A stretch of DNA of 59,119 nt from an uncultured Methanosarcinales archaeon (GCA_964362535.1 CAYIEN010000004.1:3571-62689); one strand, 5' to 3'; shown: positions 6,822 to 58,718, counted from the stretch's first letter. Numbers and translations: made by a program. Notes: generated from the sequence alone by a model not told the origin.

Positions 6822-8062
6822 TTTTTGGTTCCGTTCGTTTTCGGTTCAAGAGAGGTCCATACGCGATAGGTTTCAGGCGGCAGGTCAGTCCATGCGGAAA
6901 CAATGTTATTCGCAGTGGTTTTGGAGGAGTATTTAGCTAATTCCTCAGGAGATAGGCTAGTGGTGGCCGTGATTTCTTCAGTATCGATAAGTTTATTCTT
7001 TTTGATGAGCATGCGCACATATGGTGCCAGGGCTTCCGCAGAGAGTTTTTTTTTTATTTGCAACAATGATTCATTCGTTTTTTTGAGAAGTTCAGAGTCT
7101 GAAGCGAGAGGGAGTTGAGAATTATCAAAAAGGGAGCAGTATGCGTGTGATGCTGCGACGAAGGTGGGGAGTGTGGGTGCGGAGCAAACCATCTTTTCAA
7201 GGTTAAGCAGGTCTTGTTTTCGCGAAAGGAGGTGGAAATCGAATTCAGCGCTTCGCGCGTCACGGTATCGTTCTGAGGGTTCTTGGCGGGTGCAGCGGGT
7301 GAGGATGGCAGCGAATGGTTCGCGGTATTCTGAAGGGATGTTGATGAGTGATTGAGGATTGATTCCGTGGCCGTTTTCTGTTTTGGCAGAGGGCTTGGCT
7401 AAGAGTCCTGAACAGAGTCGTGAGATGAGTGTGCCTCCTGCGTAGACATCTGATGCTGCTGTTGCTTTGCTTCCTCGACTGCATTCCGGCGCGATGTAGC
7501 CAGGAGTTCCAAGTGTGCGGGTGAGGGTTTTCCCTTCCTGCACGGAGAGTCCGAAATCGATGATTCTGAGGTCGATAAAGTCTTCTTTGCGCAGTACGAC
7601 GTTTCCAGGGGCGATATCGCGGTGCACAATTCCTTTTCCATGGATTGCTGCCAGCCCTGAAAAGAACTGATGGGTGATGGTGTTGTAATCTCCTGCAGTT
7701 AGGTCTGAGGCGTATACTCTGACGAATTTATCAAGACCGAACGCCCCCTCGAAGTCATCCATGATTGTCCAAATGTCTCCGTTTTCCGTTACAAATGAGT
7801 CGTAAAATTTGATGACGTGGTCATTGCTGATCTTTTCCAGGCTTTTGATTTCTGCAGTTATTTGCGCGATTTCTTCAGCGGGAGAGTCTTGATTGTCGTA
7901 CTCAGGTGTTGCAAATTTAATGCGGAATTTTCCGGGACGGGAGGGGTGTGTTGCGATGAACTGCATGGTGCGTTCGTCTATGTACGAGATGACCTTGTAT
8001 TTGCGGCGGTTAAGGTCGAGTGTTGCTTGCGCATTTTCGATGGCTTTTGTGTGTCCGCTCAT
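6818..8062 (-). CDS. Hanks-type Ser/Thr protein kinase with C-terminal extension
   Basis: RIK lysine, EI..L, HGKGIVHRDIAPGN, IIDFG, GTPGYIAPE, SDVYAGG, P.ERY; canonical Gly-rich loop absent. Confidence 0.93.
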   Translation of the reverse strand: MSGHTKAIENAQATLDLNRRKYKVISYIDERTMQFIATHPSRPGKFRIKFATPEYDNQDSPAEEIAQITAEIKSLEKISNDHVIKFYDSFVTENGDIWTIMDDFEGAFGLDKFVRVYASDLTAGDYNTITHQFFSGLAAIHGKGIVHRDIAPGNVVLRKEDFIDLRIIDFGLSVQEGKTLTRTLGTPGYIAPECSRGSKATAASDVYAGGTLISRLCSGLLAKPSAKTENGHGINPQSLINIPSEYREPFAAILTRCTRQEPSERYRDARSAEFDFHLLSRKQDLLNLEKMVCSAPTLPTFVAASHAYCSLFDNSQLPLASDSELLKKTNESLLQIKKKLSAEALAPYVRMLIKKNKLIDTEEITATTSLSPEELAKYSSKTTANNIVSAWTDLPPETYRVWTSLEPKTNGTKK

Positions 8063-11037: not shown

Positions 11038-12324
11038 ATGAAATTTAGTGAATTGAATATCAAGGCAGAACATAAGGCAGCTCTCGCGGCGATGGGTATC
11101 GAAACCCCGACGCCTGTTCAAGAAGGCTCGTTGCCGATGCTTTTGGCAGGCAAAGATCTCGTAGCAAGAGCCAAGACTGGTTCTGGTAAAACAATTGCAT
11201 TCTTGCTTCCTATCTTGCAAAAGTTGGAAGCGACTGCGCACGTGCAAGCGCTTATTCTTGTTCCGACGCGAGAGCTCGCACAGCAGATTTTCAAGGAAGT
11301 CAAAAAGCTCGACACAAAGGTCAAAGCGATTGAAATCTTTGGCGGTGTCAGTATTGTTCCGCAGGTCGAACAGCTTCACGGTTGGGCGCAGATTGTTGTC
11401 GCCACTCCTGGACGTATTCTTGACCACATTCAGAGACGCACAATCAATTTCTCAAACCTCAAATTTGTTGTGTTGGACGAAGCGGACCGTATGATGGATA
11501 TGGGTTTTATTGATGATGTGCGTGATATTTTGAAGCACACGCCTCGTTCAAGACAAACCATGTTGTTCTCGGCAACGATGCCGGAAGCAGTCATTCGTTT
11601 GAGTCAGGAATACATGGTTGATCCACAGCAGTTGATTCTTGACCAGGATGAAATCACGGTCAAAAAAATCCGTCAGGTCTGTTATGGTGTGGACAAGATG
11701 GAAAAGTTAAACACTCTTGTCAAGATTTTACGCAAGAACAATGTCGCGAGATGCATGGTGTTCTGTAACACAAAGACGTGGGCAGATACGCTTACCCGAA
11801 TCTTACAAGGCAAGGGTTTTCGTGTCGCGAGCATTCACTCAAACCTGTCGCAGAACCAGCGTAGCAGAGTCATCGAAGACTTCAAGAAAGGCAAGTTCGA
11901 AGTTTTGGTCGCGACGGACGTTGCTGCACGAGGTTTGCACATTGACGACGTTACACACGTCATTAACTATGACCTTCCGAGAAACCCGAAGGACTACGTT
12001 CACCGAATAGGACGAACGGGTCGCGCTGGCGAAGAAGGCGATGCAATCTCGTTGTTGACGCAGCAAGACGAGCCTTTGTTGAAGGGTATCGAGCGAGAAA
12101 TTCAGATGTTCCTCGAAGTCATTCCGTTGAAGGCAAGCTTTGATGGTACGATTACGGTCGCGAAGCCGCGCGAAATGACTGCTGAAGAATTGGCAGCGAT
12201 GGGCCCAGCAGAAGCGTTTGAGTACTCGAAGAAGCCTCGTCAACAGTTCTCAGGTAGTTTTACTCCTGATGGTGAAAGAAGCGTTCCCGAAAGCAAGAAC
12301 GACGACTGGGACCGTTGGGATTAG
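11038..12324 (+). CDS. deaD: DEAD-box ATP-dependent RNA helicase
   Basis: Q motif PTPVQ, AKTGSGKT, PTRELA, TPGR, DEAD, SAT, ARGLHI, HRIGRTGRAG; start MKFSEL after SD. Confidence 0.97.
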   Translation: MKFSELNIKAEHKAALAAMGIETPTPVQEGSLPMLLAGKDLVARAKTGSGKTIAFLLPILQKLEATAHVQALILVPTRELAQQIFKEVKKLDTKVKAIEIFGGVSIVPQVEQLHGWAQIVVATPGRILDHIQRRTINFSNLKFVVLDEADRMMDMGFIDDVRDILKHTPRSRQTMLFSATMPEAVIRLSQEYMVDPQQLILDQDEITVKKIRQVCYGVDKMEKLNTLVKILRKNNVARCMVFCNTKTWADTLTRILQGKGFRVASIHSNLSQNQRSRVIEDFKKGKFEVLVATDVAARGLHIDDVTHVINYDLPRNPKDYVHRIGRTGRAGEEGDAISLLTQQDEPLLKGIEREIQMFLEVIPLKASFDGTITVAKPREMTAEELAAMGPAEAFEYSKKPRQQFSGSFTPDGERSVPESKNDDWDRWD

Positions 12325-12391: not shown

Positions 12392-12511
12392 GCGCCGGTA
12401 GCGAAGCGGTCAAACGCGGGGGACTTAAACGTCCGTCAACTACTTTGGTTGATACGCAACTGAGCAATCCTTTGTCTTAGGACTTCGGAGGTTCGAATCC
12501 TCCCCGGCGCA
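12392..12511 (+). tRNA. trnL: tRNA-Leu(UAA) with 37-nt canonical 37/38 intron (12430-12466)
   Basis: Acceptor GCGCCGG/CCGGCGC plus A73; anticodon TAA at 12426-12428; BHB with central helix CUUA/UGAG and bulges AAC and CAA; long variable arm GTC-TTAG-GAC; T arm GGAGG-TTCGAAT-CCTCC; CCA not encoded. Confidence 0.95.
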
Positions 12512-14522: not shown

Positions 14523-14672
14523 ACAAAAACAAGTTTTCCGACGATATAAAAAGATTTGTGTGATTCAACAATAGAATGTTTGCATTCAAACACAACGTTT
14601 CTAATCACTATTGTTTACGCTAATAATGCTTATATACGTCGGTCGCACTTACAAAAAGTACAAAAGGGGTGT

Positions 14673-14712
14673 GGGCAGTGGGATGATTTTTCGCGGGGTC
14701 ATCCCACTGTCT
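14673..14712 (+). terminator. GC hairpin followed by T-tract
   Basis: GGCAGTGGGATGA...TCATCCCACTGTC then TTTTTCTT. Confidence 0.5.
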
Positions 14713-14713
14713 G

Positions 14714-14860
14714 TTTTTCTTCCAAACTTTCAGAAAGTTTGATCAAAGTCCTTCTTGTTCACGCTCGGGAAACTGAGAAATAGAACGTTCGCGTTGCGAA
14801 CGTGAATAAAACTTTTCCCTCGCCTTCACAAAGTCGGACGATTACTCGCTTCGCTCTGTT
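14714..14860 (+). repeat. Structured intergenic repeat, copy 1
   Basis: 14749-14860 aligns without gaps to the reverse complement of 20411-20522 (about 86/112 identical by manual count); homology extends through an AT hairpin. Confidence 0.85.
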
Positions 14861-14888
14861 CGAATAGAGTTAAAGTAAATAAGAACAA

Positions 14889-15308
14889 CTACTTCCGCAT
14901 CTTTTCAGCGAGTAGTTTGAACAGTTCAGGTTGAATCTTAAGGATGTCTTTGCCGGTGATGAAGCCGACGAATTGTTCTTTTTTGTTCATGACGGGCAAG
15001 TGTCTGACGTTGTGGTCGCGCATGAGTGTGATTGCTTCTTCGATGTTTTGTTCTTCGCGGACGACGATGAGGTTTGATTCCATGATGTCGTCAACGAGGG
15101 TTTTTGAGGGTAAAACGTTTTTGAGTACGCATTTGCGGACTAAATCCTGTTCGGTGATGATGCCGACGACGCCGGGGCCGTCTTTGACCAATAACGAGCC
15201 GACGTGCAAATCAGACATGATTTTGGCGCATTGCTGCAGGTTCGTGCCTGGGGGAACGGTCACGGGCTGTTTGGTCATGACTTCTTTCACCAGTTTGGTT
15301 GTTTTCAT
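14889..15308 (-). CDS. Stand-alone tandem CBS (Bateman) domain protein
   Basis: VKEVMTK.PVTV, VGSLLV, VGIITEQDL, VRHLPV, VGFITGKDI; start MKTTKL. Confidence 0.93.
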   Translation of the reverse strand: MKTTKLVKEVMTKQPVTVPPGTNLQQCAKIMSDLHVGSLLVKDGPGVVGIITEQDLVRKCVLKNVLPSKTLVDDIMESNLIVVREEQNIEEAITLMRDHNVRHLPVMNKKEQFVGFITGKDILKIQPELFKLLAEKMRK

Positions 15309-15604
15309 TGTGTTCCTTTGCACGTGCAGCCGATTTGGGTGCGGCACGTTCCCTTACAAGAATTAACCATAGGCAAGCCTGTATTTATTGTTTGCGTACG
15401 ATACTGCGCGGCGGTTTCTTCCAAGGTTGGTCGCGGAGCGTCTTTTCCTGCGTAAGGAGTTACGGACAAATCAGTTGGCTCTTGCTGCAGATACGCGGGC
15501 AAGACTCCTCTGCCTGTGTATGCGCGTACTCCGCCTCCGGAATAGGCTTCGCGTGTGCAGCCTCCGCGTGTGGGTCCATCAACACGGACGTCATAATTAG
15601 CCAT
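15305..15604 (-). CDS. Small Gly/Tyr-rich protein with Cys-cluster tail (CxxxC-x5-CxC)
   Basis: Fills the gap exactly: 8-nt overlap with the upstream gene and ATGA overlap with the CBS start. Confidence 0.6.
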   Translation of the reverse strand: MANYDVRVDGPTRGGCTREAYSGGGVRAYTGRGVLPAYLQQEPTDLSVTPYAGKDAPRPTLEETAAQYRTQTINTGLPMVNSCKGTCRTQIGCTCKGTQ

Positions 15605-17507
15605 GGATGAGTATCTCCACGTCGGAGCCGAAGATGCGCTTCAAGTCGGTGAAGATTGCCGATTTCAAAAAGGTGCGGATGGGCACTTTTGCTTTTGCAA
15701 GTGCTTCTTCGAGTTCTTCGAGCGTTGCGTTGTCGATCAGGCCGAGGCTTCCGTCGCTTTTGATGTCTGCCTTTGATACTGTTCGTTGCGGTGCATCCAA
15801 ATCATGCGTGATGAATGCTTTGTCGCCCAGCAGTAAGACTTCGCCGAATTTGCTGCCGAATTTGACGCGGATGCGTGCTTTTTCTAGTTCTTTTCCGCGT
15901 TTGTGCTGCAAGTAATCAATCAAAGCTCGAATAAGCTCGGAGGATTCTTTGCGCACGATGTCAATCTCGGTCTTCGTCAATTTGCCGTCATCGTATGATT
16001 TCTTCGCACGCAACACATTGTCCAAGCTTCGGTGGAATTGTGCCGGTATTTTGCCCGAGTGTACGAGGTTGTGCTCGAATGTTTTCAAAATAGCATCATC
16101 GGAGGTTCGTTCGACCCCTTCGAGCGAAAGGATGTCTCGCACGATGGTGACGGTGTGGTCGTAGGTTTTGATGAACATTTCTTTTTCTTTGATGGCTTCG
16201 ATTTGCGTGAAGAGTTTCTTGACGCGCTTCAAATACTTGTCACAGGAGTCGTACAAGTCATCGATTTCTTTGCCCGTGATTTCTTTTTTGTCGCCGTGTT
16301 CAATGGCTTTTCGGACGTCAAGCACTTTTTGCAACGTATCAACGTCTTTGTCTTCCAAGAGTTTCTCTTTCTGCACAAAGATTTCGCGCAATACTCCGGG
16401 AGTTTCTTTTGGTGCCGGTGGAGCCACTCCGTACAGCATAAGTGCTGCCTGAGATGGAGTTAAGATGCTCCAGAAGAAGTCTTCGACGCCAATCTCCTTG
16501 AGTCGTAACTTTACGCGGTCCAAACCTTGTTCGCCTTGGCTCATGTACATGTCGATTGCTTCGGGGCTGGGCTTGATGCGTCCCATCTTTAACAACTGCT
16601 TCCAGGGCATGAAGATGCCTCGGTCGTAGAACGGGATGCCGTCGCGCAACATCGTAAAGTAAACCGCGTTCGCGTCCTTCAATCCTTCCCAGAAGTCTGT
16701 CAAGATCCAGATTTGGATGTTGATTTTGTTTTTGATGCCAGTCATATCGCCGGCGTCCATGCCCATGCCGATGATGATGCTTCGGAGCTTGTCTCGTAAT
16801 TCTGCGCGCGTCATCTTTTTGACGTCAGTATCATCGACAACAAGCCAGACGTCGATGTCGGATTGGGGCGTTGCTTTGCCGGTCACCATCGAACCAGCCA
16901 AGACGTACGCGACAACATACTTCTCAAACTTCTTCAAGACCATTTGCTTGTGGATTTCAGCCAATTTGATTGCGCCGAGCATTCCTCTGTCGAAGACAGG
17001 AGCGCACATGCCGATGACGTTCAACAGGTCGTATTTGCTGTCGTAGCAGCTTTGCCAGACTTCAGAAAGAATAACGACCTGAGGAAGTAGCTTTTCGTCA
17101 GTTTCTTTCGCATCTTTTGCAATAATTGTTGACAGCTTATCCTTGAGTTCCTGCTTGGTCATCTTCTGACTATCGGAGTCGTCAACCAAAACGAGTACGT
17201 GGACTTTGTCTTTGTTTTCTTTGAATCGTTTGATTTCTTCCGCTTGAATTTCGGGAGGGAGATTCGTTGCGGGTTCTTTTGGCGGCGGAAGTAATCCGAT
17301 GCCGACGATGTATTTGTCAAACTTTTCAAGAATCTTTTTTTGGAAGACGTCAACCTTTTCCTTAATTTGCTTCAGTTGTTCTTGTACTTCGGGCGGTAAT
17401 TGTGCGAGCGGGTCAGGCGTAGGTACAACGGGTGTTGCGTTCAGGGGTTCTTTTGCGTACGAGCCTGTTTCTTTTGTTGATTCTTTTGATGTTTTGGGTT
17501 TTGCCAT
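15597..17507 (-). CDS. Tandem minimal nucleotidyltransferase (degenerate plus intact) fused to HEPN-like domain(s)
   Basis: Internal duplication (LEKFDKYIV/LKKFEKYVV, LVDDSD..KMT..EL.DKL); second copy has GS...SDIDV; RKAIEH (Rx4H) in the following helical bundle; SD AGGAGG. Confidence 0.8.
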   Translation of the reverse strand: MAKPKTSKESTKETGSYAKEPLNATPVVPTPDPLAQLPPEVQEQLKQIKEKVDVFQKKILEKFDKYIVGIGLLPPPKEPATNLPPEIQAEEIKRFKENKDKVHVLVLVDDSDSQKMTKQELKDKLSTIIAKDAKETDEKLLPQVVILSEVWQSCYDSKYDLLNVIGMCAPVFDRGMLGAIKLAEIHKQMVLKKFEKYVVAYVLAGSMVTGKATPQSDIDVWLVVDDTDVKKMTRAELRDKLRSIIIGMGMDAGDMTGIKNKINIQIWILTDFWEGLKDANAVYFTMLRDGIPFYDRGIFMPWKQLLKMGRIKPSPEAIDMYMSQGEQGLDRVKLRLKEIGVEDFFWSILTPSQAALMLYGVAPPAPKETPGVLREIFVQKEKLLEDKDVDTLQKVLDVRKAIEHGDKKEITGKEIDDLYDSCDKYLKRVKKLFTQIEAIKEKEMFIKTYDHTVTIVRDILSLEGVERTSDDAILKTFEHNLVHSGKIPAQFHRSLDNVLRAKKSYDDGKLTKTEIDIVRKESSELIRALIDYLQHKRGKELEKARIRVKFGSKFGEVLLLGDKAFITHDLDAPQRTVSKADIKSDGSLGLIDNATLEELEEALAKAKVPIRTFLKSAIFTDLKRIFGSDVEILIHG

Positions 17508-17518
17508 GGGTTGTCCTC

Positions 17519-18259
17519 CTAACGGATAATGATTTGTTCGAGTGTGTGGGTGATGCTGGTCGTGCCCGCGCAGATGTTCATGAATGTCGTAATCGCATCG
17601 GTGCCGGTCTTGATGATGTGCAGGACAAAGTTGAACGCGACGTCGTGCAGTCCGTTTTGTGCGGGCTGGAAGTGGAACGAGTTTCGTAAGTCTGCGATGT
17701 TGTGGTCGCGGATGGTTTCCATCCAGGCGAGTGAGAACGCGAATGCTTTTGCTTCTTCATCGCGTTGGTCTCGGAGTGGTGCGGTCATGGCGTGGCCGAT
17801 TTCGTGGCCGAGCACAAGCATGACTTCTGCTAAATCTCCGTGACGGACGAACACATCAGACACAGCTTTTCCAAATCGGTTTTGGCAGAATCCTCGAATG
17901 CTGTCAGTACATCCCGGACCGAATCCTTTTGCGAAGTCTTCATCGTTGCAAATATGTACAAGAATGTCGTTGGGGAATTTTGCGCCTGTTCGTTTTTCAA
18001 ACGTTTCTTCAATCAGGGGCATGAGTTCTTCGCGGTTGTTCATCCACTTTGTTGGAATGCCGGTCAAGAAGGGTTGTGCGCTGAAGTAGGTGTGCGCTTC
18101 GCTGTGCATCGTGACAGGAGTTTCGCGGTCTTTGTGCGCGGTGTAGCTCATTGCTGAACTCAAATAGTTACCGAGCGAGCCACCCATAGAGGCATAGTTT
18201 CCGCTCGAAGAATAGCCTCCTCGGCCGTACCCTGTTCCCGCTGACATTCCGTTATACAT
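17519..18259 (-). CDS. HExxH zinc metallopeptidase, ImmA/IrrE-like, with Gly/Ser/Tyr-rich N-terminus
   Basis: LGHEIGHA followed by EEAKAFAF third-ligand helix. Confidence 0.65.
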   Translation of the reverse strand: MYNGMSAGTGYGRGGYSSSGNYASMGGSLGNYLSSAMSYTAHKDRETPVTMHSEAHTYFSAQPFLTGIPTKWMNNREELMPLIEETFEKRTGAKFPNDILVHICNDEDFAKGFGPGCTDSIRGFCQNRFGKAVSDVFVRHGDLAEVMLVLGHEIGHAMTAPLRDQRDEEAKAFAFSLAWMETIRDHNIADLRNSFHFQPAQNGLHDVAFNFVLHIIKTGTDAITTFMNICAGTTSITHTLEQIIIR

Positions 18260-18265
18260 TGGTGT

Positions 18266-18472
18266 TTATTTTCGCAACGCGTCTTCCAATTTCTTGGGTG
18301 CGGCTTTTTTGGCTTCGGATTCCAAATCTACTCCGAGCTCTTTGAGTGATTTCAAGTGTAATTGCATGAGTTGTTCGACAACGCCGAGTAATCGAATGAA
18401 TTCTTCTCGTTCTTTTGCAAGAGTCGTTAATGCTCCTTTGTGGAAGCCGATTTGTTCGTTTTTGTCAGTCAT
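18266..18472 (-). CDS. Small conserved coiled-coil protein
   Basis: EQIGFHKGALTTLAKEREE..R helical pattern; SD GGAGG. Confidence 0.75.
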   Translation of the reverse strand: MTDKNEQIGFHKGALTTLAKEREEFIRLLGVVEQLMQLHLKSLKELGVDLESEAKKAAPKKLEDALRK

Positions 18473-18617
18473 GGGAATCCTCCGGACAGAGTTGTCATAG
18501 TATGTTCTTCTAAGACTGCTATGAATTTAAGCGTAAGTGACAGAAAAGTCATAGTTTTTTGGTTGTTGATAGCTTCACTCCATAATAGATGGTAAAGTGT
18601 CATAATGTTTATAACGA

Positions 18618-19475
18618 GTGTCAAGGTTTCGCGAGGGGATGGATGCCTGGCAAGAGCCTGAGGATAGTGATGAGCAGGATGACTCGTCTGATGATGCTGA
18701 GTCTTTCGCGAAGGAATTTGATGAATTCTTGGAAGAGAGGGAGTTGGGTCTGACTGTTGATGAACATGTTTATTTGCAGAATGTCATCTTGCATGTCACC
18801 AAGGATTTTCCCGTTATGGAAGGGCTGATGGATATTGAGCACGAAACCATTAATGACAAGGTGATGCGGCTGTATATGGAAAAAGAGTCGCATCCCGAAA
18901 AAAGCACAGCGCACCAGGAATATATGAGGGCGGCTGCGGAAGAAAAATTGGTGTTGATGATGCAGTACCCGTTGTGCATGAGGCCTGATGCGTTGGATGA
19001 TCTCGGGCTCGCGCTTATTGAGTCGGGAATGGCTGACGTTGATGAAGATCGGGTGAATGTGTACTACGGGGTGTTGGAAGATTTTTTTGATTTGTGCTGT
19101 GTCACGCAGAAATACGCTTCGTTGGTGAAGTCGCTGGAGCGTGCGCTTCGTGACGGGGATATTGCTGACGCGGATAATCTGAAGGAATTATTGAGTGAGG
19201 ACATTCTTGGTTACACACGCAGCCAGCTTGGCATTCCTCTTGAGAAGGATGAATTGGTCCGCAGGCATTTGTGCGTCGCGAAGGACAACGCGCTTGAGAC
19301 CGTGCTGACATGCGCGATGGATGCGTCGCCGGAACAGCGCGATGTGTATTTGGAACGGGCGACGAGGATTCTCGAGTATGATGTGACATTCGGGTTCAAG
19401 GAGGAAGATGATGTCGACCCGGTTGATTATTCTTGGGCGAAGGAATTTGCAGAATCGTTGAAGAACACGAAATGA
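18618..19475 (+). CDS. Highly acidic helical hypothetical protein
   Basis: 285-aa D/E-rich ORF; TATA-like TTTATAA upstream; start may be the ATG at 18639. Confidence 0.65.
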   Translation: MSRFREGMDAWQEPEDSDEQDDSSDDAESFAKEFDEFLEERELGLTVDEHVYLQNVILHVTKDFPVMEGLMDIEHETINDKVMRLYMEKESHPEKSTAHQEYMRAAAEEKLVLMMQYPLCMRPDALDDLGLALIESGMADVDEDRVNVYYGVLEDFFDLCCVTQKYASLVKSLERALRDGDIADADNLKELLSEDILGYTRSQLGIPLEKDELVRRHLCVAKDNALETVLTCAMDASPEQRDVYLERATRILEYDVTFGFKEEDDVDPVDYSWAKEFAESLKNTK

Positions 19476-19476
19476 T

Positions 19477-19656
19477 TTAGATTAATTTTACTCGCTTTTC
19501 AACGCTGAGTTCTCGTCTTTTGATTTGTTCGTCGAGGTAGTTGGTGATTGTTTTGCCGTCCATTGATTTGATGTCGAGAAAGCTGTCTGCGATTTTGAAG
19601 GAGGGATTGAGTGTGAGCTCGCTTTTCTTTGCTGCGATTTTGTGCGGAGTGTTCAT
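19477..19656 (-). CDS. 59-aa small protein (not in ORF track)
   Basis: Manual translation MNTPHKIAAKKSELTLNPSFKIADSFLDIKSMDGKTITNYLDEQIKRRELSVEKRVKLI; TTTATAAA about 25 nt upstream. Confidence 0.5.
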   Translation of the reverse strand: MNTPHKIAAKKSELTLNPSFKIADSFLDIKSMDGKTITNYLDEQIKRRELSVEKRVKLI

Positions 19657-19689
19657 GTTGCGTGTTTATTGCTCGTTTGAGTTTATAAA

Positions 19690-20235
19690 TTAGAGTTTTG
19701 CTTTTTTGGCTTTGTCTGAGATGATTGCTGAGTTGCCAGTAGGGTCGGTGATGGTGAGAATGACTTTTTCTTCGCCGCAGAGAATTCGTAATATCTTTTT
19801 CAAGAGGTTTTTGGCTTTTGTTTTGTCTGCGTCGTCTTCTGCCGAGTCTCGGAGGTGTTCGACTTGTTCTTTGATGCGGTTGATGATGCCTTCAATGTTG
19901 GTGATGTATCCTTCGCTCGCGACGCCAGGGTCGATGCTGCCGATGTTTGCGATCTTGATGCTGCCTTCGCTGCTTCGCACCAAGCGCACGTTGAGGTCTT
20001 CCAGCGAGCTGATTTCGAACGTCCACTTGACGGGTTCTTTTTGTTCTGCTGCTTCGACGTCTGCTTTGCGGAATCCGCAGGCGGAGCATTGCATGGAGAA
20101 CACGAATAGCTTTCCGAAGTAGGGCACTTCTGTGTCGGCCTCGGTCATGCTTAACGTCTTTTTGCCGCAGACCGGGCATTGCTCGCCCTCTAATGTCTGG
20201 ACGTTGTTCATCTCATTGTTTTCTTTCTTTACCAC
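19690..20235 (-). CDS. zpr1: ZPR1-family zinc-finger protein
   Basis: CPVC, VPYFG, CSACGFR..DV, DLNVRLVRS, GYITNIEG, DPTGNSAI. Confidence 0.93.
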   Translation of the reverse strand: MVKKENNEMNNVQTLEGEQCPVCGKKTLSMTEADTEVPYFGKLFVFSMQCSACGFRKADVEAAEQKEPVKWTFEISSLEDLNVRLVRSSEGSIKIANIGSIDPGVASEGYITNIEGIINRIKEQVEHLRDSAEDDADKTKAKNLLKKILRILCGEEKVILTITDPTGNSAIISDKAKKAKL

Positions 20236-20311
20236 GATACGAATTCAGCGAATACCGTTTAAAAACGTTGTGGTGGAGGGGTCTTTATCAATTAATTTTC
20301 GAGATTTTTGT

Positions 20312-20398
20312 GGTGGCAACCCTGCGGCGCGACGGCTGATGCCTACTCGCCACCCCGAATGGGGCGTCCCCCGGCTCGCCGCGCGCAGGGTTGCCGTT
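20312..20398. ncRNA. GC-rich long hairpin, candidate small RNA
   Basis: Perfect 12-bp arms GGCAACCCTGCG (20315-20326) / CGCAGGGTTGCC (20384-20395) enclosing nested stems. Confidence 0.4.
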
Positions 20399-20410
20399 GA
20401 GAACTACTAA

Positions 20411-20557
20411 GACGGAGCGTAGCGAGAAATCTTCCGACATTGTGAGTGTGAGGGAACAGTTTTAAACACGATCGCGAAGCGAGCGTTTTGTTTCATCGGT
20501 TCCGGAGCACGAACAAGGAGGAATTTACTCAATTTTTAAATAAAAATTGAAGAAAAA
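20411..20557 (-). repeat. Structured intergenic repeat, copy 2 (inverted)
   Basis: Homologous to 14714-14860; contains GCGTAGC and GCGAAGC mini-hairpins on the + strand. Confidence 0.85.
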
Positions 20558-20585
20558 GAATCCGCCAGTTTTTAACGCTGGCGGA
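20550..20585 (-). terminator. Hairpin plus U-tract terminator after the minus-strand microprotein pair
   Basis: TCCGCCAG-N9-CTGGCGGA followed on the minus strand by TTCTTTTTCTT. Confidence 0.6.
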
Positions 20586-20606
20586 CCCGTCAGTGAGTGA
20601 AGACTG

Positions 20607-20690
20607 TTATCTTTTTTTCCAGGCTGCGTCGAAGCGTAGTTGGTTTTCGAGTTCTTCACGGACGAAGTTGTGGAGGTCTTCCACGTCCAT
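20607..20690 (-). CDS. 27-aa microprotein (not in ORF track)
   Basis: MDVEDLHNFVREELENQLRFDAAWKKR; starts 7 nt after the upstream stop and ends just before the terminator. Confidence 0.45.
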   Translation of the reverse strand: MDVEDLHNFVREELENQLRFDAAWKKR

Positions 20691-33728: not shown

Positions 33729-33808
33729 TTCCCTCAAATTTTCCGAAAATTTGTGCATAAGATTTAAATATTAAAAACGCTGTATTTTGTGTTAGATGGA
33801 GGTGGATT

Positions 33809-58319: not shown

Positions 58320-58718
58320 ATGGAAGAAAATAAAGTATATCAGGGAAGTTTGGAAGACCGTTGCAAAACGGCGAGTAAATTGATTCGGGATGATCCGATG
58401 GCAGCAGTCATGTATTTGGCAAATCTGCCGTCAGAAAATCTGAAAGACCTGAAGCCAGCATACCTTGCACTCAAGGAATCGCTCGAGTCCCGTTACGCTC
58501 GCGGCCAGGCAGAACATCCTGACGAAGCAAAAGCATACATGACAAGCTGTTTGCTCGAATACGTAAACCAAAAACTGGCAGAATTCGACGGCAAAGATAA
58601 GCAGAAGATGCCGAACGCTGGGTCTGAAAAGCTGTATCGTGGACCACCTGAACTCGGAAAGCAATACAAAGGCAAACTTGAAGAAAAAAAGCCTTACTCC
58701 GGAAAGAAAACGGCTTAA
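58320..58718 (+). CDS. Hypothetical protein
   Basis: 132 aa; SD AGAGGA. Confidence 0.6.
   Translation: MEENKVYQGSLEDRCKTASKLIRDDPMAAVMYLANLPSENLKDLKPAYLALKESLESRYARGQAEHPDEAKAYMTSCLLEYVNQKLAEFDGKDKQKMPNAGSEKLYRGPPELGKQYKGKLEEKKPYSGKKTA

Follow-up and report, generated by a model that had tools for sequence, protein, structure and literature searches.

Target-primed copying from the 3' end of a single-stranded template, as in the long and short interspersed nuclear elements (LINEs and SINEs), leaves a characteristic combination of traces: a defined 3' end, a 5' end that is ragged or truncated, and target duplications that vary in length. Repetitive extragenic palindromic sequences and bacterial interspersed mosaic elements (REP/BIME), which go with REP-associated tyrosine transposases (RAYTs), and the palindrome-associated transposable elements (PATEs) of the IS200/IS605 insertion sequences (IS) require a Y1 (HUH) transposase; they have a defined hairpin at each end and are not known to produce a target duplication. 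IS200/IS605, IS91 and Helitrons also have two defined ends and no known target duplication, and IS1634 is known for direct repeats of variable length. To our knowledge, flanking duplications and 3'-anchored ends are not part of the description of the Rickettsia palindromic elements (RPEs). According to one account, RPEs can sit in-frame inside housekeeping genes (PMC10969869), and mitochondrial hairpin elements are small repeats that invade compact genomes by a route described as unknown (PMC2800124). A 2024 survey counts many 'cMITEs', defined by terminal inverted repeats, in 'a Woesearchaea genome', the available part of the survey holding no description of them (PMC11602168). Here we analyse a 59,119-nt stretch of DNA from an uncultured Methanosarcinales archaeon (GCA_964362535.1 CAYIEN010000004.1:3571-62689; hereafter the window), which contains two inverted copies of a folded repeat, copy 1 and copy 2. 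On balance, and by a modest lead over doubt, we read these two stretches as old copies of a small, non-coding, non-autonomous mobile element that spread by 3'-anchored copy-and-paste, with RNA as the likeliest intermediate.

The full covariance-model match of copy 1, including a lineage-specific 5' leader, spans 156 nt at 14715..14870 on the minus strand (cmsearch 163.4 bits, E 3e-31; also detected by nhmmer), and that of copy 2 spans 20401..20556 on the plus strand (157.7 bits). A first-pass annotation of the window had aligned two inverted stretches here and proposed an undescribed dispersed family of structured non-coding repeats. The alignment is real, with a mean column identity of 79% across 236 columns when flanks are included, and the family extends beyond this pair, contrary to the first pass's own refuting condition that these two copies are the sole ones. 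An iterated nhmmer profile search of the whole assembly of the window's own genome (G000; 908,965 bases in 24 contigs, 98.6% complete), by which the window copies were found, detected nine copies of about 156 nt each and nothing else above noise; full-length relatives were found with a cmsearch covariance model. The contexts of the nine copies are mutually unrelated and all nine are intergenic, in a tiny, DPANN-type archaeal genome with at least one split gene. The copy on contig C2 carries a 54-nt insertion that forms two extra hairpins. All nine lack recognisable duplications and look old. The whole window, searched against Rfam at gathering thresholds, gave a tRNA as its sole match and none to the element, and permissive searches (E<=1 at both copy loci, E<=5 in the surroundings of copy 2) returned chance-level matches only, which rules out a known RNA family and agrees with the proposal of an undescribed one. 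A protein-coding repeat was also rejected, because reading frames are not conserved between copies and covariation accounts for the substitutions.

On the strand that we take to fold, the element consists, from 5' to 3', of a weakly conserved mini-hairpin, an irregular 95-nt rod (P1-P2-[GA/AG]-P3-[GAG/GGA]-P4, an internal loop and P5), the linker TTTGATC and P6, whose 8-bp stem carries a 3-nt loop. Every hairpin has a loop of this length, and the tip of P5 is GC-GNA-GC, which confirms a motif already noticed in the first pass and places it on the folding strand. The conserved core P1-P6 of copy 1, supported by helices and covariation, lies at 14723..14839 on the minus strand. Within it, the 3'-terminal hairpin P6, CAAACTTT-CTG-AAAGTTTG, occupies 14723..14741 and is supported by covariation as well as by insertions elsewhere, which end 0-6 nt past this hairpin; the linker, here TTTGAT, stands directly before P6 at 14742-14747, and the P5 hairpin at 14785..14803 has the tip GC-AAC-GC, of the GC-GNA-GC class, with 6 of its 8 pairs changed on both sides. 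The 5' mini-hairpin of the same strand, GAGC-GAA-GCGA at 14845..14857, is present in the copies of G000 and poorly conserved elsewhere (62.7% paired across the family). In copy 2, on the plus strand, the core spans 20432..20549, P5 lies at 20468-20486 with the tip GC-GAA-GC, and P6 lies at 20530-20549.

The compensatory pairing that the first pass had noticed is far above chance. Across the nine copies, 92.9% of positions in a curated 36-pair structure are paired, compared with 32-41% when the partners are slid; 21 pairs are changed on both sides, and none of 500 shuffles matches the observed values. In an alignment of 36 copies from 14 genomes, which was fitted to the model and is hence biased towards the structure, 91.7% are paired compared with 33-47% when slid, two-sided changes are seen at 31 of 38 pairs, and again 0/500 shuffles reach these values. 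The strand, by contrast with the orientation first given, is better taken as the reverse complement, whose alifold energy is -31.0 kcal/mol compared with -25.7 kcal/mol, and which has 27 G.U against 14 A.C juxtapositions. Wherever a conserved juxtaposition is not Watson-Crick, it is a tandem G.A on this strand and would be a pyrimidine clash on the opposite one; these tandem G.A/A.G juxtapositions are invariant. Energy, G.U and tandem G.A together give moderate, not strong, support for the window minus strand in copy 1 and the plus strand in copy 2. By eye, the G.A motifs did not fit the consensus patterns of hammerhead, K-turn, H/ACA or C/D elements.

We searched 61 genomes with the covariance model (G000, 36 others of the same GTDB family and 24 from other families of the order), using stricter filters that possibly missed weak copies. 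The search found 69 full-length copies in 14 genomes, namely G000 and 13 of the 36 others of the family, spanning 10 genera with 1-11 copies each, and none in the 24 genomes from other families. Within the genus, four of six members bear the element, and the two without any are 95-96% complete. Public records with full-length relatives carry DPANN labels (Woesearchaeota, Nanoarchaeota) or are named 'uncultured Methanosarcinales'. Neighbouring genes are mostly housekeeping, including those for a CBS protein, ZPR1, EF-1a, Kae1, MscL, S7, L6/L19e, L37ae, S17e, aIF5A, Spt5, SecE, HisRS, GyrB and ABCE1; a conserved partner gene was ruled out, as no neighbour recurs across copies.

Comparison with empty sites, as the first pass had suggested, shows that the element moves. 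At the CBS locus, the order CBS gene-GC hairpin-189-aa gene is conserved across the genus; in G001 and G006 the stop codon runs almost directly into the hairpin, and G000 has about 190 extra bases there, including the element. At the S7 locus of G006, a 22-nt stretch (the last five codons, the stop and four more bases) stands on both sides of a 120-nt unit, and the element-free site of G000 has this stretch once, which shows that the repeat is a target duplication. Exact flanking direct repeats of 12-63 nt, each different in sequence, surround 22 of the 69 copies, which we refer to as young, while shuffled controls give at most 11. Their lengths are 12, 12, 13, 14, 14, 14, 14, 15, 16, 19 and 21 nt for the shorter 11 and 21, 22, 23, 25, 32, 35, 37, 41, 44, 57 and 63 nt for the longer 11, so the length of the duplication is not fixed; the displaced 14-nt repeat of L042 is probably due to chance, leaving 21 copies. 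Repeats flank 5/5 copies in G017, 3/3 in G011, 5/11 in G010, 4/7 in G015, 2/3 in G028, 1-2 of 3 in G013 and 1/7 in G006, and 0/30 in G000, G003, G004, G005, G016, G021 and G024 together. G015 is marked as unpublished, and its repeat counts, the 63-nt case at tRNA-His and locus L116 (see below) depend on it.

The two ends of the inserted unit differ. At the 3' junction, the unit ends 0-6 nt past P6 in all of the first 10 copies examined and about 20 nt past it in two more. The 5' end lies anywhere from 1 to about 55 nt ahead of P1, shares no terminal motif and is ragged within single genomes too, and in L114 the copy is cut to its last ~45 nt, adjoining a tRNA-Gly gene. The sharp end is also the 3' end on the strand that the G.U and G.A evidence favours independently. 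None of the 21 duplication-bounded units has terminal inverted repeats, and no transposase was seen adjoining the copies, in flanks of 0.26-3 kb, as the first pass had reported for the window. Young insertions are concentrated at tRNA genes, the ends of genes and promoters: 7 of the 21 lie within 80 nt of a tRNA gene predicted by ARAGORN, with an eighth (L035) recognised by eye. A TATA box follows at a distance of 8-13 nt in 7 of the 35 copies examined for this, and two further cases are borderline. The site upstream of EF-1a is filled in both G000 and G006; since the upstream genes there differ among genomes, the 3' boundary alone is readable. The element therefore moves, and its insertions duplicate the target, end sharply on the 3' side and are ragged on the 5' side. 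The earlier description of the repeat as REP/MITE-like (MITE, miniature inverted-repeat transposable element) holds for its mobility, on the evidence of empty sites and duplications, and fails for its mechanism, given the lack of inverted ends, the long and variable duplications and the lack of a Y1/RAYT gene in G000.

Because the 3' end is sharp, the 5' end ragged and the duplications variable in length, the insertions point to target-primed copying from the 3' end, and both mobility and 3'-anchored copy-and-paste are well supported. The element comprises a variable 5' fold, here the rod P1-P5, and a conserved 3' module (TTTGATC and P6). It would spread by copy-and-paste through a single-stranded intermediate anchored at the 3' hairpin: a nick in the target would prime copying, which would begin at the 3' end of the intermediate and proceed towards the 5' end, and a second nick in the other strand, 12-63 nt away, would yield the duplication of variable length. 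The likeliest intermediate would be RNA, as in the retroposition of SINEs. We infer the order of these steps, the RNA or DNA nature of the intermediate and the polymerase; the RNA route is the leading but unproven form, and a pathway through single-stranded DNA (ssDNA) is its main rival. Like SINEs and non-LTR (long terminal repeat) elements, the unit is structured and does not code for protein, its 3' end is defined and bears a stem-loop, its 5' end is ragged or truncated, its duplications vary in length, its 3' module is common to differing elements and it has a preference for tRNA genes. Unlike SINEs, the element has archaeal hosts, no poly(A) or simple-repeat tail and duplications of up to 63 nt, no LINE-like partner or matching reverse transcriptase (RT) was found, and its RNA intermediate is inferred.

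Several results weigh against copying from RNA by an RT and against details of the proposed route. The RT profile RVT_1 matches in 5/12 element-bearing and 6/23 element-free genomes of the family, so an RT partner that tracks the element was ruled out. No RVT_1 match was obtained even at E<=10 in G010, G015, G006 and G003, the first three of which hold intact duplications, and no RT was found in G000. Six of eight RT loci scanned carry their own RNA of the Rfam family RT-16, and none of 20 RT loci has a copy of the element. No consistent TATA box was seen upstream of the copies in either orientation, which discounts a promoter of their own. The excess of G.U (27 against 14) is small, and in several copies the duplication continues imperfectly past the exact repeat, which a simple staggered-nick model does not predict. 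The GC-GNA-GC motif is best known as a DNA mini-hairpin, and because all loops are triloops and the P5 tip has this motif, a DNA strand fits at least as well as RNA. The acting RT could possibly be carried by a virus, a plasmid, a host cell or an unbinned contig; a search for a viral carrier gave one match in viral contigs, and this was unrelated. As a separate observation, an RT-16 motif precedes the RT genes of this archaeal family at L065, L068, L069, L075, L078 and L080 (in G024, G011, G028 and G016; 51-91 bits).

These results bear most directly on the idea that the copies are relics of an ssDNA transposon, in which DNA hairpins are read by a structure-specific nuclease or recombinase (HUH-like or other) and copied at replication forks, the duplications arising from repair. 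We hold this idea tentatively, as a possibility that falls clearly short of our preferred reading. It would explain the triloops throughout, the conserved GC-GNA-GC tip, the short relatives that consist of little beyond a GCGAAGC mini-hairpin and the 3' hairpin, the lack of an RT in several genomes with young copies, and the clustering of insertions at highly transcribed genes, where ssDNA would presumably be exposed. However, the long duplications and ragged 5' end are unlike those of the known ssDNA transposons, and the expected enzymes are largely missing. The first pass had pointed to an HUH (TnpA-Y1/RAYT) gene, and the Y1 transposase profile PF01797 gave no match at E<=1 in G000 and was found in only 2/5 genomes with young copies; TnpB (PF07282) gave no more than sub-threshold matches in G000 and was found in 0/5. 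A TnpB omega-RNA, an IS605 end and a RAYT-dependent repeat were rejected on the same grounds, as their genes were not found in G000 and do not track across the genomes with young copies. The element therefore resembles REP/BIME-RAYT repeats and PATEs in being a hairpin repeat without inverted ends that is thought to act as a single strand, and differs from them in its ragged 5' end, its long duplications and the lack of Y1 in G000 and 3/5 active genomes.

The remaining explanations account for less of the insertion pattern. That the repeat is an immobile family of host small RNAs or cis-acting RNA modules (binding protein through the tandem G.A, stabilising mRNA 3' ends or serving as an insulator), multiplied by ordinary duplication, would suit the compensatory changes that conserve the fold at orthologous loci, the invariance of the tandem G.A motifs and the position of copies directly past stop codons and directly ahead of housekeeping promoters. 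We consider it improbable, as unrelated target-site duplications surround 21-22 copies, empty sites exist, the family is missing from the two of six genus members mentioned above, some copies are 5'-truncated, and the 3' module occurs within genes of distant archaea; a host role acquired secondarily is possible. A MITE mobilised by a DDE transposase whose direct repeats are long and variable, as in IS1634, seems less probable still: the short copy at L176 abuts the end of a DDE_Tnp_1_4-like open reading frame (ORF; E 2e-5, below the Pfam cut-off), yet terminal inverted repeats are absent, the 5' end is ragged within single genomes, and no related autonomous element was seen next to any of the 69 copies or of the 80 loci described below. 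The element shares with MITEs that it is short, non-autonomous, multicopy and mainly intergenic, and differs in having no terminal inverted repeats, no duplication of fixed length and no parent IS in its flanks. Scars of site-specific integration by an integrase at tRNA genes, with the flanking repeats as att sites, are to our minds the least credible of these explanations; several repeats are indeed parts of tRNA genes, but most are not, and they all differ from one another (coming from the end of the S7 gene, from spacers between genes and from promoters), and the empty S7 site shows that the repeat there is the target's own sequence. As for small repeats of other compact genomes, the element is similar to RPEs in being small, palindromic and dispersed in reduced genomes, and its short archaeal relatives likewise sit in-frame in genes, whereas the sequences are unrelated, the hosts of RPEs are bacterial, and both window copies and the other G000 copies are intergenic. 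Mitochondrial hairpin elements are likewise small hairpins in compact genomes, but they are organellar and unrelated in sequence.

Returning to the element as a mobile unit with a copied 3' end, we examined its fate at a fixed locus. Copy 2 is the ortholog of the ZPR1-adjacent copies in G003 and G005, as the copies of all three genomes share both flanks. Among the 33 pairs scored in these three orthologs, 16 are invariant, 8 are changed on both sides and still paired, 1 has become G.U, and the other 8 include a non-pair, several of them reflecting a recurrent G.A alternative in P3 or a misalignment caused by P6 loop length. The paired changes indicate that the fold was maintained at the locus after insertion. 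Its upkeep could be due to selection, through continued activity or a host role, or to gene conversion from other copies; such a host role may be that of an RNA end-structure between genes. The first-pass idea that the two window copies could mediate inversion of the segment between them finds no match in G003, where the order element-ZPR1-~4 kb-CBS is collinear and no inversion of the bracketed segment is seen.

The 3' module is found far beyond this family. A 25-mer of the module, TTTGATCAAACTTTNNNAAAGTTTG, occurs at at least 119 loci in a scan of one genome per prokaryotic species (lineage names of these loci are the depositors' labels, used unchecked). Among the loci listed, most are labelled Methanophagales/ANME-1, with several per genome; the other labels are Methanosarcinales, Syntrophoarchaeum, Methanocellales, Methanobrevibacter (including the isolate M. 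filiformis DSM 11501), Woese-, Aenigm-, Nano-, Nanohal-, Iain- and Altiarchaeota, Thermococci and Nitrosotalea, and four loci are in bacterial bins. Some labels or bins are wrong, because L161, L123 and L170 share near-identical flanks under three lineage labels. When 80 of the loci were compared with the covariance model, 51 gave a match (53 matches), 19 of them full-length (>=47 bits) and the rest covering the 3' module only. At the loci with the 3' module only, the module follows a shorter 5' hairpin, often merely TGCGAAGC(A/G)T. Units of about 36 nt (mini-hairpin, linker and hairpin) are arranged head to tail with no spacer at L174, L144, L123 and L170, and L123 and L170 have two units in the same AIR-synthase-type gene in which L161 holds one.

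Exact flanking repeats of 11-44 nt are present at 14 of 79 loci with the 3' module, starting 0-11 nt past the hairpin, except for one that starts 1 nt ahead of the hairpin end (shuffled 95th percentile 9, maximum 11). At eight loci an open frame runs through the entire 545 nt, and five of the eight match ordinary protein families, namely PheRS beta, DUF2298 and an AIR-synthase-type (AIRS_C) protein, the last at a single site that recurs in three records; a shorter open frame through the motif matches the diphthamide synthase Dph6. The module also lies antisense inside tRNA genes, in intervening sequences, at L116 and, by eye, at L196, L187, L197 and L142. L116, in the unpublished G015, is a tRNA-Asp(GUC) recognised by Rfam with a 57-nt insert in the anticodon loop, and the idea arises that such insertions feed the diversity of tRNA introns. 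An autonomous element that shares just the 3' module was sought and rejected, as four extra occurrences turned out to be one expanded copy, one truncated copy and two tRNA-embedded motifs. At L159 (labelled Halobacteriota) and L160 (labelled Altiarchaeota), a short element lies in near-identical flanks, and by eye the reading frame downstream looks like the beginning of a group II intron protein. It is conceivable, if doubtful, that the element family forms, within DPANN, one branch of a superfamily of SINE-like retroposons that extends across the archaea. These would be copied in trans, by an RT or an RT-capable polymerase, from an RNA with a conserved hairpin at its 3' end, and would be the first target-primed retroelements known in prokaryotes other than introns. 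If so, SINE-like insertions would seed intervening sequences in tRNAs, lengthen housekeeping proteins by inserts of 12 codons and leave structured RNA modules in intergenic positions.

Elsewhere in the window, a lone P6-like hairpin, CAAATTTTCCGAAAATTTG, lies at 33735..33753 on the plus strand (nhmmer with the 3'-module profile, E 0.08, a weak match). A TATA box at 33762-33770 starts 8 nt downstream of it, a spacing also seen in 7 of 35 full copies, and the hairpin may be an extremely 5'-truncated copy.

The GC hairpins that adjoin the two copies lie outside the element and are native terminator-like features. The first pass had noted an unrelated GC hairpin with a T-tract directly ahead of both copies and, at copy 1, a TATA-like TTATATA near 14630. 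The hairpin beside copy 1, at 14674..14712 and followed by GCCCACACCCCTTTT on the minus strand, is present at the same site in G001, G002, G004 and G006. Because it is conserved at the site even in the element-free relatives G001 and G006, this hairpin with its T-tract belongs to the host locus. TTATATA recurs at the corresponding position in these four genomes, either almost unchanged or as a variant, and since G001 and G006 keep it without the element, it is not the promoter of the element. The whole arrangement at about 14600-14712 on the minus strand, consisting of the hairpin, GCCCACACCCCTTTT and a TATA-like GTATATAAG, is kept downstream of the CBS gene in G000 and these four genomes and persists with or without the element; it may represent a terminator together with the promoter of a small unannotated transcript. 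The hairpin beside copy 2, CCGCCAG...CTGGCGG at 20557..20590, lies at the 3' end of a convergent small ORF, and the stretch immediately past it is conserved in G003 and G005. Past this hairpin, the 22-nt GACCCGTCAGTGAGTGAAGACT at 20591-20612 on the plus strand, in the 3' untranslated end of the same ORF, is identical in three species (also at L020 in G003 and L026 in G005).

Immediately 5' of copy 2, at 20315-20395, lies a second and unrelated dispersed repeat of about 88 nt that is GC-rich and strongly folded. It also occurs in G000 at C2 ~11293-11396, C1 ~58523-58627 and C19 ~7008-7112, with a partial copy at C4:66511-66536. Its core is 93-96% identical among copies, its outer stem shows compensatory changes, and it has no Rfam match at E<=5. 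At 12392-12511, the window contains a tRNA interrupted by an intervening sequence of 38 nt and by a second insert of 12 nt (Rfam 47.1 bits; ARAGORN predicts no tRNA in the window). The diphthamide synthase (Dph2) gene of G000 is split between different contigs into an N part of 84 aa (profile 1-61; C6:22398-22580) and a C part of 235 aa (profile 63-271; C2:39230-39805), at L015 and L017; the C part comes with a TATA box and a start codon of its own, and G004 also has a stand-alone Dph2 N part of 82 aa.

No description of the element was found in Rfam or in the literature, motif strings included, in a search that left most subscription journals outside, which supports the view that the family is undescribed. 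The conservation of a 25-nt module across phyla suggests that a conserved protein reads it. For genome annotation, the elements put conserved folds between the genes of very compact DPANN genomes and land in or beside tRNA genes and, in other lineages, in-frame in essential genes. If our reading is correct, archaea hold a widespread class of tiny mobile elements that insert unlike any described class of prokaryotic transposon, with a sharp end at the 3' hairpin, a ragged 5' end and duplications of 12-63 nt. Eukaryotic LINEs and SINEs are characterised by target-primed copying, and a counterpart in archaea would be relevant to the question of how they arose.

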